64,000 bases of DNA from an uncultured Acidobacteriota bacterium (GTDB taxonomy: Bacteria > Acidobacteriota > UBA6911): contig CAWJKZ010000024.1 of the NCBI GenBank assembly GCA_963843575.1, forward strand, positions 128,001 to 192,000, in the 5' to 3' direction. The notes under the pieces were generated by a model. The model made no database searches. It worked only from the letters and a program-made list of their open reading frames with translations, and had not been told where the DNA came from. Positions 21,299 through 24,377 of this stretch are shown piece by piece. Within the stretch, counting starts at the first letter, position 1. Each line of letters starts with the position of its first letter. The position numbers and the translations under genes were made by a program.

Positions 21299-22604
21299 AA
21301 CCGCTGGGATTCTCGTTCTGCTGCTCGCCGCGTGCGCCGCCGCCCCCGTCAGGGGGGCGCAGGCCCCGGGACCGGGCTCCACCGTCACCTTGACACTCGA
21401 AGACACCCTGCGACGCGCGCTCGCGCGCGCCCCGGAAGCCGCCCTGGCCCGGGCACAGGCCGACAGGGCCGTCGCGGCGGTCCGCGAGACAAGGTCGGCC
21501 AACCTCCCCCAGATCCTCACCGGGACCGGGCTTGCCTACAACAACGGTTTTCCGCTAAGCATCGAAGGATCCGCGCCTTCCCTGTTTCAGGTCGGCTTCA
21601 CGCAATCGATACTCAGCCGACGCAACAAGAACCTGATTCTCGAGGCCGAGCAGAGCCGCGACGCCAGCCGCATCGCGCCCGAGGCCGCCGAAAACGACCT
21701 CGCCGCACGCTGGGCCCTGGTCTATTACGCGCTGCACCACGCGCGCAAGGCGGAGGCGCTCTGGGAGGCGCGCGTGCAGTCGGCCGTCGAGCAGCAGCGC
21801 ATCGCCGCCAGCAAGCTCGAAGCCGGGAAAATCCGCCCCGTCGACGTGACCCTGGCCGAGGCGGCCGTATTGGAGTCGGGCCAGCAAGCCTTGGTCGCCC
21901 GCGAACAGGCACGAGTGGCCGAATCGGAACTCAGGGCTGCGGTCGGCTTGCCCGACGGAACGCGCCTGCGAACCGTCGAGCCGCAATTCGACCCGACCCC
22001 GGCGTCCGGGTCGCCCGAAGAGCTGTACCGCCGCGCGCTCGAGGCCCACCCGGAGGTGCGCCAGGCCGAAGCCCGATTGCGCGCCCGCGAGCTACACGTC
22101 GAAGCCGAAAAAGGGGAATTCCGTCCGCGCCTGGAACTCGTGAGCCAGTACGCGCTGTTCAGCCGGACCAACAACTACCAGGATTTCTTCAACCGCTTCA
22201 CCCGGAATAATTTCCTGTTCGGCCTCTCGGTCCAGGTCCCCGTGTTCGACGGCTTCCGGTCCAGCGCCCGCGTCGCGCAAAGCCGCCAGGAGGCTGCCGA
22301 GTCCCGCCTGGAGCTGGAGCGGCTGCAGAATGAACTCCGCCTCGGCATAGAACGCGCCGTGAGCGCCCTGTCCATCTCCCGCGGTGCACGCCAGCTCGCC
22401 GACCGCCAGCTGTCCGCCGCAAGGCAGTTGCTCGCGGTCAACGAATCCCTGTTCGAAGGGGGCCGCATCGCCCCCGGGGAACTCGACGAGGCGCGCACCC
22501 AGGTGCGCGAAAAGGAACTCGCCGAGCTGGAGGCGAGGCGCGCCCTGTTCGAACGGGGTATCGAACTGCTGCGGGTGACGGGGAATATGAAGTCAATACT
22601 ATGA
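21291..22604 (+). CDS. TolC family outer membrane efflux protein
   Basis: Signal peptide, LTLEDTLRRAL, HPEVRQA, GLSVQVPVFDG. Confidence 0.88.
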   Translation: MSKTAGILVLLLAACAAAPVRGAQAPGPGSTVTLTLEDTLRRALARAPEAALARAQADRAVAAVRETRSANLPQILTGTGLAYNNGFPLSIEGSAPSLFQVGFTQSILSRRNKNLILEAEQSRDASRIAPEAAENDLAARWALVYYALHHARKAEALWEARVQSAVEQQRIAASKLEAGKIRPVDVTLAEAAVLESGQQALVAREQARVAESELRAAVGLPDGTRLRTVEPQFDPTPASGSPEELYRRALEAHPEVRQAEARLRARELHVEAEKGEFRPRLELVSQYALFSRTNNYQDFFNRFTRNNFLFGLSVQVPVFDGFRSSARVAQSRQEAAESRLELERLQNELRLGIERAVSALSISRGARQLADRQLSAARQLLAVNESLFEGGRIAPGELDEARTQVREKELAELEARRALFERGIELLRVTGNMKSIL

Positions 22605-22613
22605 AGGTTTTGC

Positions 22614-22645
22614 AGATTCTTTGAGCTCTTAGAGACTTGGAGGTG
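22614..22645 (-). repeat. Arm of CTCGAAG-type palindromic repeat (family D)
   Basis: Reverse complement CACCTCCAAGTCTCTAAGAGCTCAAAGAATCT matches 44312-44343 at 26/32. Confidence 0.7.
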
Positions 22646-23461
22646 CGGCGGGCCTATTCTCAAAGTGGAGACTCTGGCGGTAAACGCAACGCCAGGCCTA
22701 TGTCTTTGACAGAGACTCCGCCTTGTCCGTTCCCGACTGGCGCTTTCCCTCCAACATGGCACTGTGGCGACTTTGCAGGGATCGTTTTACGCCACGGGAC
22801 GGATCATGATGTCGTTACTCGCTCATCGTCGTACCCCTCTTTGAAACGCAAACAGTGTTGTGCCACCACCGCCACCTTGCGCGCCAGGTTCCGCTTCAAG
22901 CGTTCAGGCGATACGCCGGCCTCCAGCCCGTCGCGCCACATCCGGGTCAGCGCATTGTCCGCCTCCGGCCGGGACGCGATCGCGGCAGCGGCCGTCATCA
23001 GGACATTCTTGGTGTAGCGGTTGCCCTGGCGGGACGCTCCCCGATGACCTTTCCCATCCGACTCATGCTTTCGTATCCCCACCCCGCAGTACTGCCACAG
23101 CTGGCGTTTGTTCCTCAAACGCCAGCCGTCTTCAAGTTAGGCAATCAGGGTACACGCCCCGATAAATCCCACTCCGGGTACCGTTTTCAGACGGAGCTCC
23201 TGTTCCCGAAAGGGTTTGACCAGTTCCCTCAGGATATTGATGTGGGCCGCCTTCCTGCCCCGGAAAGATCCACTTCCCGTGTCCGGACCTTCTTGTACTC
23301 CACCTCCCGGCCGCGGTCGTTCAATACGCTGATGTGAGTTGTTGAGCTGTGTCCGTCCAATCCTATATGCTTCATCTAGGGCCTCCGGTTTCATGGTTGC
23401 CAAGGAATCCGATCCTTGCCGGTAACCATGTCAGTTTACCGCGAGGCCCGTTCTGTCATAG
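22646..23461 (-). mobile_element. Internally deleted IS110-family element (boundaries approximate)
   Basis: Transposase remnant with ~86-nt upstream and ~158-nt downstream non-coding ends, between two inverted family-D arms; visibly lower GC than flanking genes. Confidence 0.75.
22804..23375 (-). pseudogene. IS110 transposase pseudogene
   Basis: ATG 23375 with GGAGG RBS: MKHIGLDGHSSTTHISVLNDRG (DEDD N-terminus), joined out of frame near 23260 to LKTVPGVGFIGACTLIA*LEDGWR..LWQYCGV..HESDGK..SRQGNRYTK..LARKVA (Transposase_20); in-frame TAA at 23137-23139. Confidence 0.88.
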
Positions 23462-23463
23462 TT

Positions 23464-23503
23464 TCTCGAAGGCTCGAAGAATCTCGAAGGCTCGAAGAAT
23501 CTC
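23464..23503 (+). repeat. Family D arm with perfect 18-bp tandem duplication
   Basis: TCTCGAAGGCTCGAAGAA x2 (23464-23481, 23482-23499) then TCTC. Confidence 0.85.
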
Positions 23504-24377
23504 AGAGAGGAATCCTCTGCGGTTTGTAGCGCATCGCGAGTGCTCGCACCGCGATGGCGGCTTTTTCGGGGCCGGACAGGCGTACGCTCGTCCCGAACAC
23601 GTCGTAACGCCTGCGGATGATTTTCTTCAGGATGCGCCCGTAGATTTCCATCATCGCCCAGAGTGCCGGCCGGCTTGCCGGCTCGATCATGGGCAGGAGC
23701 CTGCGCCCGTTTGCGTAATACTGGGCTGCGCGGGCGCTCTCGAAGCTCATGAGGCTGCGGAACCGCTCGTCGACCAGGGCGCGCTTCAGGTCCTCGGGGG
23801 GGTAGCCGAAGCGTTCCAGGTCCTCGAGCGGCAGGTAGATGCGGCCCATGGCGGCGTCTTCCTTGAGGTCTCTGAGGATGTTGGTGAGCTGGAAGGCGAT
23901 GCCGCAGTGTTCGGCGTGTTCCTTGGCGCACTCCTGCGCGAACCCGAAGATCTGCAGGCAGACGAGCCCGACCGAGGAGGCCACGTTGAAGCAGTAGCGG
24001 TAGAGGTCCTCGAAGGTCCGATAGCTGTCGATGTCGAGATCCATTTCGGCGCCGTCGATAATCCAGTGGAAGTACCGGGCGGGGATGGCGAAGCGCTCCA
24101 GGGTGTCGTAGAAGGCGGGCAGGATGGGGTCTGCCCCGAGGTCCCCGCGGAGCGCGGCGTCGAGCCGGTCGCGCCAGCGGCGCAGGAGGGCGCGCTTCTG
24201 GGCGACGGCCTCGGTGCCGTCGGATATGTCGTCGCAGTAGCGCATGAAGGCGTAGACGGCGCAGAGGCCGCGGCGCTTTTCCGGGGGGAGCACGACGAAG
24301 GAGTAGTAGAAGTTCCGGGCGCGGCTGCGGGCGACGGTTTCGGCGCAGCGGTAGGATTGTGCGAGTTCTGAGTTCAT
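23502..24377 (-). CDS. hpnD: Squalene/phytoene synthase family, presqualene diphosphate synthase HpnD-like
   Basis: NFYYSF, YAFMRYCDDISD, QLTNILRDLKEDA, GRIYLP; hopanoid neighbourhood. Confidence 0.82.
   Translation of the reverse strand: MNSELAQSYRCAETVARSRARNFYYSFVVLPPEKRRGLCAVYAFMRYCDDISDGTEAVAQKRALLRRWRDRLDAALRGDLGADPILPAFYDTLERFAIPARYFHWIIDGAEMDLDIDSYRTFEDLYRYCFNVASSVGLVCLQIFGFAQECAKEHAEHCGIAFQLTNILRDLKEDAAMGRIYLPLEDLERFGYPPEDLKRALVDERFRSLMSFESARAAQYYANGRRLLPMIEPASRPALWAMMEIYGRILKKIIRRRYDVFGTSVRLSGPEKAAIAVRALAMRYKPQRIPL

Follow-up and report, generated by a model that had tools for sequence, protein, structure and literature searches.

A probable guide-RNA gene of IS1111 type preserved in a decayed IS110-family element

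Background

The closest described systems are the RNA-guided elements of the IS110 family, for which we follow the definition of the IS1111 group given in two published accounts, as far as their descriptions extend (PMC11187229, PMC11208160). According to the former, the seekRNAs of the IS1111 elements ISEc11, ISKpn4, ISPa11 and ISPst6 come in a short form of 70-100 nt and a long form of 145-170 nt (Siddiquee et al. 2024; PMC11187229). The bridge RNA of IS621, represented by 8wt6 and other structures, is described as having an internal loop, the two strands of which read two DNA strands around a 2-nt core, and its recombinase combines the DEDD and Transposase_20 domains (Durrant et al. 2024; PMC11208160). 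In Pseudomonas putida, the ISPpu9/Ssr9 system is portrayed as an IS110-family element that has inserted into REP sequences, its transposase gene being followed by a small-RNA gene (PMC12288879).

We sought to characterize a structured stretch at positions 22647-22803 (minus strand) of the window, i.e. of the entire 64,000-nt segment of DNA that was analysed. It consists of two closed domains located directly 3′ of the stop codon that ends a broken transposase gene of the IS110 family, and is, in our opinion, very probably the guide-RNA (seekRNA or bridge RNA) gene of an IS1111-type IS110-family element, preserved in a dead copy. An earlier note on this DNA had already proposed that the stretch represents the guide-RNA end of an IS110/IS1111-type element, a proposal borne out by the fold common to the family and by the matches between guides and flanks.

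Remains of the element in the window

The C-terminal remnant of the transposase (22804-23118, minus strand) is a 104-aa ORF matching Pfam PF02371 (E = 2.3e-6) and 58-69% identical to its homologs in genomes G019 and G016; its stop codon at 22804-22806 (minus strand) is adjoined by the RNA. The N-terminal remnant (23229-23375, minus strand), recognized by frame translation as 48 aa beginning with MKHIGLDGH, is in a different frame from the C-terminal piece. About 500 bp of the gene has been deleted between the two (in a blastn comparison with the intact relative L066, positions 185-686 of L066 have no counterpart in the window), and the DEDD domain is mostly gone. The left end of the element (23452-23464, minus strand) is composed of an AAA extension (23464-23462) and, following it, the subterminal inverted repeat CTATGACAGA (23461-23452); it is conserved in L011, L013, L015, L016, L019 and further left ends, and its boundary was set by an empty site in G019. 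Next to it are the core dinucleotide (23465-23466, minus strand), assigned by homology, and the left target flank CCTTCG (23467-23472, minus strand), which is part of a REP-like array.

On the opposite side, homology to relatives ends 4 nt beyond Domain 2, at 22643, and full-length relatives continue for another 244-494 nt to the right inverted repeat. The truncation point (22643-22646, minus strand) is formed by GCAC, the last 4 nt common to full-length relatives in a comparison with L057, and the truncated RNA end is adjoined by a REP-like repeat arm (22610-22642), similar arms being found elsewhere in the genome. A motif scan of the source genome, which is 88% complete and comprises 27 contigs, yielded one RNA copy and one left end; at that level of completeness the assembly gave neither a right end, nor an intact copy of the element, nor an intact cognate transposase, and it contains two further fragments. 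With its transposase gene disrupted and its right end missing, the window copy is a fossil that can no longer move. A second relic, L002, has the same six flank bases as the window copy (CCTTCG), diverging thereafter, as would fit guided insertion into like sites.

Relatives and family assignment

Protein similarity searches in 60 related genomes revealed relatives of the transposase in five of them: three intact copies, all identical, in G019, a tandem pair in G014, and partial copies in G016, G029 and G010. The 104-aa remnant, when used as a query against genome contigs, found no relative. In the G014 tandem (L016 and L012) the copies are related, and the first one has an in-frame TGA and is without the RNA region. 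The relatives among genome contigs are Terriglobia/Acidobacteriota MAGs, judging from record titles. In G019, G014, G016 and G029, all found by protein similarity alone, the gene is followed by a two-domain non-coding region, and in every homolog examined the RNA accompanies the transposase gene.

Intact ORFs are 340-343 aa in length in all ten elements checked. The non-coding ends extend about 400-650 nt beyond the 3′ end of the gene. PF01548 and PF02371 are both present in an intact 343-aa homolog, which scores 137.7 bits, just below the cut-off of 140, against the NCBIfam model NF033542 (‘IS110 family RNA-guided transposase’). It can be aligned to IS621, with HES placed over YES at the catalytic-serine motif, although this match (E = 7.5e-4) covers the C-terminal domain only. 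Relatives carry both subterminal repeats, the right end being TCTGTCATAG-A, and the window has only the left copy, AAA-CTATGACAGA. Assignment to the IS1111 group is based on the position of the non-coding region downstream of the gene, on long subterminal repeats that bear extensions, on the transposase length of 340-343 aa, on the order of strand matches, and on the RNA sizes of 76 and 157 nt. The lineage is a distant one: among plasmid records, tblastn gave nothing closer than a match of 26.9% identity.

Full-length relatives have two further features that the window lacks: all of them carry, directly after Domain 2, a conserved block (about 35 nt; …TGATGYC…ATATTTC…GCCGCCGCG; e.g. L023, 5983-6020), and an inverted repeat (…GGAAGTCAAG…CTTGACTTCC…) adjoins the right subterminal repeat.

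Fold and covariation of the RNA

The 164-nt minus-strand RNA folds with a predicted energy of -69.7 kcal/mol (z = -3.85), and none of 200 shuffled sequences folds as well. Domain 1 and Domain 2 together span 157 nt. Domain 1 (22726-22803, minus strand; 78 nt) forms a long, irregular hairpin comprising stems P1, P2 and P3, and the closing stem given for it in the earlier note, TCCGTTCCC (22726-22734) with GGGACGGA (22796-22803), is right for the window. Domain 2 (22647-22722, minus strand; 76 nt), delimited by the RNAalifold consensus, would constitute the target-binding module. All of the strings listed for it are present at their positions, including the closing GGCGG (22647-22651) and CCGCC (22718-22722), the frame GGCCTAT-N10-GAGACT at 22651-22673 and again at 22695-22717, and the hairpin CTGGCG-N10-CGCCAG at 22674-22695. 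An Rfam scan with E values up to 10 produced a sole match over the RNA, to RMST_3 (22552-22668, E = 4.8), which lies well under the gathering score and is chance-level.

In the window, the outer helix of Domain 2 (minus strand) joins GGCGG (22722-22718) and GUCU (22716-22713) to AGGC (22655-22652) and CCGCC (22651-22647), and the inner helix (minus strand) joins AGGC (22699-22696) and UGGCG (22694-22690) to CGCCA (22679-22675) and GUCU (22672-22669). Between them lies a symmetric internal loop of 13x13 nt. The RNAalifold consensus of the family has an outer helix RGGCGG/CCGCCY lengthened by GUCU/AGGC, and an inner helix AGGY/RUCU that stacks upon a hairpin stem of 5 bp. The twice-repeated frames are therefore the ends of two helices flanking the internal loop, and Domain 2 owes its pseudo-twofold appearance to the pairs of the GUCU/AGGC type that stand on both sides of it.

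A pattern derived from the shared frames retrieved 41 metagenome contigs, two of which (L041 and L064) turned out to be unrelated repeats and were left out; the same kind of pattern applied to genome contigs returned only G019, G014 and G029 again. After merging of identical rows, the alignment comprised 37 distinct sequences: the window, 32 from metagenomes and four from three genomes. Since the search pattern fixes the frames, their invariance in the 32 metagenome rows (out of 37) is circular by construction; they are nevertheless also present in the four lineages found by protein similarity, where circularity does not apply.

The helices tested in these 37 sequences, namely those of Domain 2 and stem P2 of Domain 1, are paired in 96.7% of 922 cells, and 10 of the 25 pairs are altered on both sides in a compensatory manner, e.g. 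columns 123-147, with U-A in 29 rows and C-G in eight. None of 500 shuffles reached the observed covariation score, and slid controls were paired in at most 48.8%. Helices 2 and 3 are 98.9% and 99.1% paired, with two and five pairs altered on both sides, respectively; P2 is 89.5% paired, with three such pairs. The check suggested in the earlier note, alignment of homologs followed by RNAalifold, came out in favor of conserved stems. Invariant G-U pairs at columns 104-166 and 122-148 are compatible only with the minus strand, that of the transposase, which identifies it as the RNA strand.

As MAFFT shifted stem P1 between subfamilies, Domain 1 was judged by single-sequence folds, in which a long P1-P2 stem with an inner P3 appears in 36 of the 37 sequences, L051 being the exception. 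Within the family, the pairing partner of its inner GUGGCG is the distal CGCCAG. Domain 1 may act as a scaffold or as a processing element of the long precursor.

One partial copy, L010 in G016 (around 1885-1925), lacks the Domain 2 hairpin and the second frame, retaining a single frame and one loop strand; it looks as if it had undergone recombination between the two identical frames.

Guide strands, core and target

The two strands of the internal loop are its variable part, with majority fractions of 0.59-0.63 in the guide columns as opposed to 0.90 in the rest of Domain 2. In the window, the loop 5′ strand (22700-22712, minus strand; N10 = UGUCAAAGAC, 22711-22702) would be the guide for the right flank, and the loop 3′ strand (22656-22668, minus strand; N10 = CACUUUGAGA, 22667-22658, then A) the guide for the left flank and core.

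Across the family, the reverse complement of loop strand 1 corresponds to the 8 nt that adjoin the core on its right (top strand, with a register of +/-1), agreeing in at least 7 of 8 positions in 30 of 31 distinct pairs, which contain 26 distinct loop sequences; L061 fails, with 3 of 8. Among 912 mismatched combinations of loop strand and right junction, 7.1% reach 7 of 8. Positions 3-9 of loop strand 2 correspond to 5 nt of the left flank and the 2-nt core in at least 6 of 7 positions in all 11 distinct pairs, compared with 4.5% of 88 mismatched pairs; this comparison leaves out the left end of L067, which had a spurious anchor. Loop strand 2 has the sense of the left flank, the core and the AA of the element’s left end, and would accordingly pair with the bottom strand. 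The variable N10 segments had been taken for guides in the earlier note, and this is how they behave, loop strands tracking flanks in both comparisons. The relatives are kin, so that the controls overstate significance; kinship notwithstanding, the guide effect is still seen across many different sequences.

It could be argued that the stretch is a structure unrelated to guidance, such as a terminator, attenuator or palindrome of the REP type, and only happens to lie beside a transposase remnant. REP-like flanks are indeed present, and the loop strands in the window are able to pair with each other over 6 nt. Such a structure would nevertheless hardly be expected to have loop strands that track flanks over 26 distinct sequences or to accompany the transposase gene so consistently, and no terminator-like site was found at the RNA. 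We find this explanation scarcely credible, and retain the guide-RNA reading.

The size and position of the core could be deduced from G019, where a REP of about 45 nt (AGCCCTGAAAGGGCGG...CCCTTTCAGGGCT) occurs in 313 copies versus one for the control pattern (L069-L098), and is the insertion target of all three intact G019 copies. Uninterrupted REP copies read ...GGCTGTGT-CG-CCCTTTCAGGGCT, and occupied ones ...GGCTGTGT-CG-AAACTATGACA...TGTCATAGA-CG-CCCTTTCA...; empty copies in L077 and L082 match the guide exactly. Comparison of empty and occupied sites reveals that the core is 2 nt in length and is duplicated upon insertion (CG in G019), and that the element has AAA followed by CTATGACA... 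as its left end and ...TGTCATAG followed by A as its right end. Our first model had the loop strands reading the circle junction, or else a core of 4-5 nt; it was dropped, the G019 empty site displaying a 2-nt core and the left-then-right order of flanks.

In L030, L042 and L066, which belong to the window’s subfamily, AG is found on either side of the element. Because of these AG/AG duplications and the G019 empty site, the window core is placed by homology at 23465-23466 (AG in the RNA sense, CT on the plus strand), and not at 23460-23461, where it had been sought initially. The left junction in the window reads CCTTCG-AG-AAACTATGACAGA, and loop strand 2 contains CUUUG-AG-AA, yielding 6 matches out of 7 (CUUUG-AG versus CTTCG-AG); the single mismatch could be accommodated by U:G pairing to the bottom strand. 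On the right side of the core, loop strand 1 would call for GTCTTTGA, a prediction made from the family rule, as the window’s own right junction has been lost. By analogy with described systems, a DEDD transposase would bind the RNA, which would align the target for recombination at the core, and the two As that follow the core in the 3′ loop strand may pair with the first bases of the element, both partners being invariant.

The earlier note relied on three short matches between the RNA and its surroundings. All three are exact as sequence matches, but two of them had been assigned to the wrong sites. When 5000 shuffled queries were compared with the same 240 nt, the level of 9/10 was reached by 45, that of 8/9 by 176 and that of 7/7 by 93. 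The only one backed by the family is the 8/9 match of CUUUGAGAA, which does read the left junction and represents the left guide. The inverted repeat TCTGTCATAG is matched 9/10 by UCUGUCAAAG, which, though unusual when taken by itself, we read as coincidence: the repeat is constant, yet 30 other distinct loop-1 sequences match it in only 3-8 of 10 positions, and loop 1 pairs instead with the right flank, which is lost in the window copy. The correspondence between UUGGAGG of Domain 1 and the flank finds no support in the family, UUGGAGG lying in predicted paired parts of the domain; the flank in question is the TTGGAGG-containing REP-like arm at the deletion breakpoint, rather than a true junction.

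Five independent insertions (L033, L036, L060, L062 and L053) share a hairpin, GCCGGCG-AGA-CGCCGG, that directly abuts the core on its left; in L053 it takes the form of a compensatory variant (GCCGCCG-AGGA-CGGCGG). A host repeat that serves as a target is the probable explanation, although the hairpin could alternatively be part of the element.

One loop or two

A second guide might be housed in Domain 1, in which case the RNA would be a bridge RNA with two loops as in IS621, with Domain 2 binding the target and Domain 1 binding the donor ends via a multi-loop. Domain 1 is, after all, conserved and structured. When Domain 1 was compared with the outermost 15-17 nt on both sides of 27 distinct elements, however, no consistent match of at least 6 nt, sense or antisense, was revealed; L061, the 28th row, had no Domain 1 sequence to offer, the ends vary little, and the reach of this comparison is contiguous pairing of that length or more. 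In addition, the short RNA of ISEc11 is described as sufficient for movement (PMC11187229, as far as that account goes). We regard the two-loop arrangement as rather unlikely, and the RNA is taken here as a target guide.

The opposite extreme would be a single-loop guide, in which the pseudo-twofold 13x13 loop would make all of the RNA-DNA recognition (5 + 2 + 8 nt), with the donor ends being read by the protein via the inverted repeats and the guide strands often being complementary to each other. We mention it as a speculation that is unlikely to hold. If it did, the preferred targets would be short direct repeats, the free RNA might hold its own loop closed, and the 34 natural guide pairs would amount to a rule set for targeting of the IS1111 type.

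Mutual complementarity of the guide strands over at least 4 nt is observed in 16 of the 34 distinct pairs, compared to 17% of shuffles, and extends to 6 nt in the window and 7 nt in L038. It implies that direct repeats of short length, e.g. ATCCGYG…ATCCGYG, make up many of the targets.

Host genome and REP-like arrays

The source genome contains REP-like palindromes made of 9-10-nt CTTNGAG units, with 108 tandem units as opposed to six in the reversed control, and the dead element sits within one such array (22610-22645 and 23467-23510 in the window; see also loci L004-L008). The joint 15-nt target predicted from both guide strands is found in the source genome at four sites with no more than one mismatch, one of which (C19) has the CTTCG variant seen in the window. 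It is not enriched in this genome over the reversed control (4 versus 3 and 22 versus 18). Predicted target sites suitable for the guide do exist in the source genome, and nothing beyond that is claimed.

Could the RNA have been kept as an orphan guide acting in trans on REP-like sites, e.g. with another recombinase? It retains every family-invariant position despite the decay of the transposase gene and the right end, the four near-matching sites would be available to it, and orphan copies of a small-RNA gene have been reported for ISPpu9 in the published account (PMC12288879). Against this, the 88%-complete genome yielded no intact cognate transposase, the other IS110-type ORFs are 34% identical, target-like sites are not commoner than in the control, and the intactness of the RNA may reflect nothing but recent decay. 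Retention for a function in trans appears very improbable to us, and the RNA is best viewed as part of a dead copy.

The source genome also harbors three intact-looking ORFs of 393 aa from another IS110-type lineage (C9:111039-111359, C9:120416-120736 and C10:618490-618810; L020-L022), 34% identical to the window remnant, which are its sole other IS110-type ORFs.

Comparison with known systems

With the window copy and its relatives, the RNA-guided IS1111 elements, a kind described in 2024, would gain a distant lineage from soil and sediment Acidobacteriota, and a structured intergenic stretch would be explained as a transposon fossil in a REP-like array, with no evident present function. The natural data set of 34 distinct guide pairs, 31 right junctions, 11 left junctions and one empty site relates loop positions to the target positions that they read, and could be of help in reprogramming such recombinases.

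The resemblance to ISPpu9/Ssr9, which is by description, extends beyond the REP location and the downstream small-RNA gene, in that RNA copies outlive the element; unlike in P. putida, only one RNA copy is present in our source genome (PMC12288879, within the limits of that account). Similarity to the bridge RNA of IS621 lies in the DEDD and Transposase_20 recombinase and in the internal loop with two strands reading two DNA strands around a 2-nt core, which in the window would be CT on the plus strand. As IS621 is presented in PMC11208160, the window family departs from it in having the RNA 3′ of the gene rather than 5′, a reversed order of guide strands, long subterminal repeats, and no identified donor-binding loop.

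Comparison with IS1111 seekRNAs, in which the named elements were compared by description, shows the window element to differ in belonging to a distant lineage with Acidobacteriota (Terriglobia) MAG hosts and in being a fossil copy. In other respects the likeness is close, as judged from the published text (PMC11187229). The window RNA, at 76 and 157 nt, fits the short and long sizes; the non-coding region is downstream of a transposase of about 340 aa; the subterminal inverted repeats have short terminal extensions; there is natural reprogramming among relatives, and the target is a repeated palindromic element. The top-strand match lies 5′ of the bottom-strand match, which is the published IS1111 order, and there is no need to invoke the variant architecture once suggested for this locus. 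The predicted layout is that of the published IS1111 seekRNAs.
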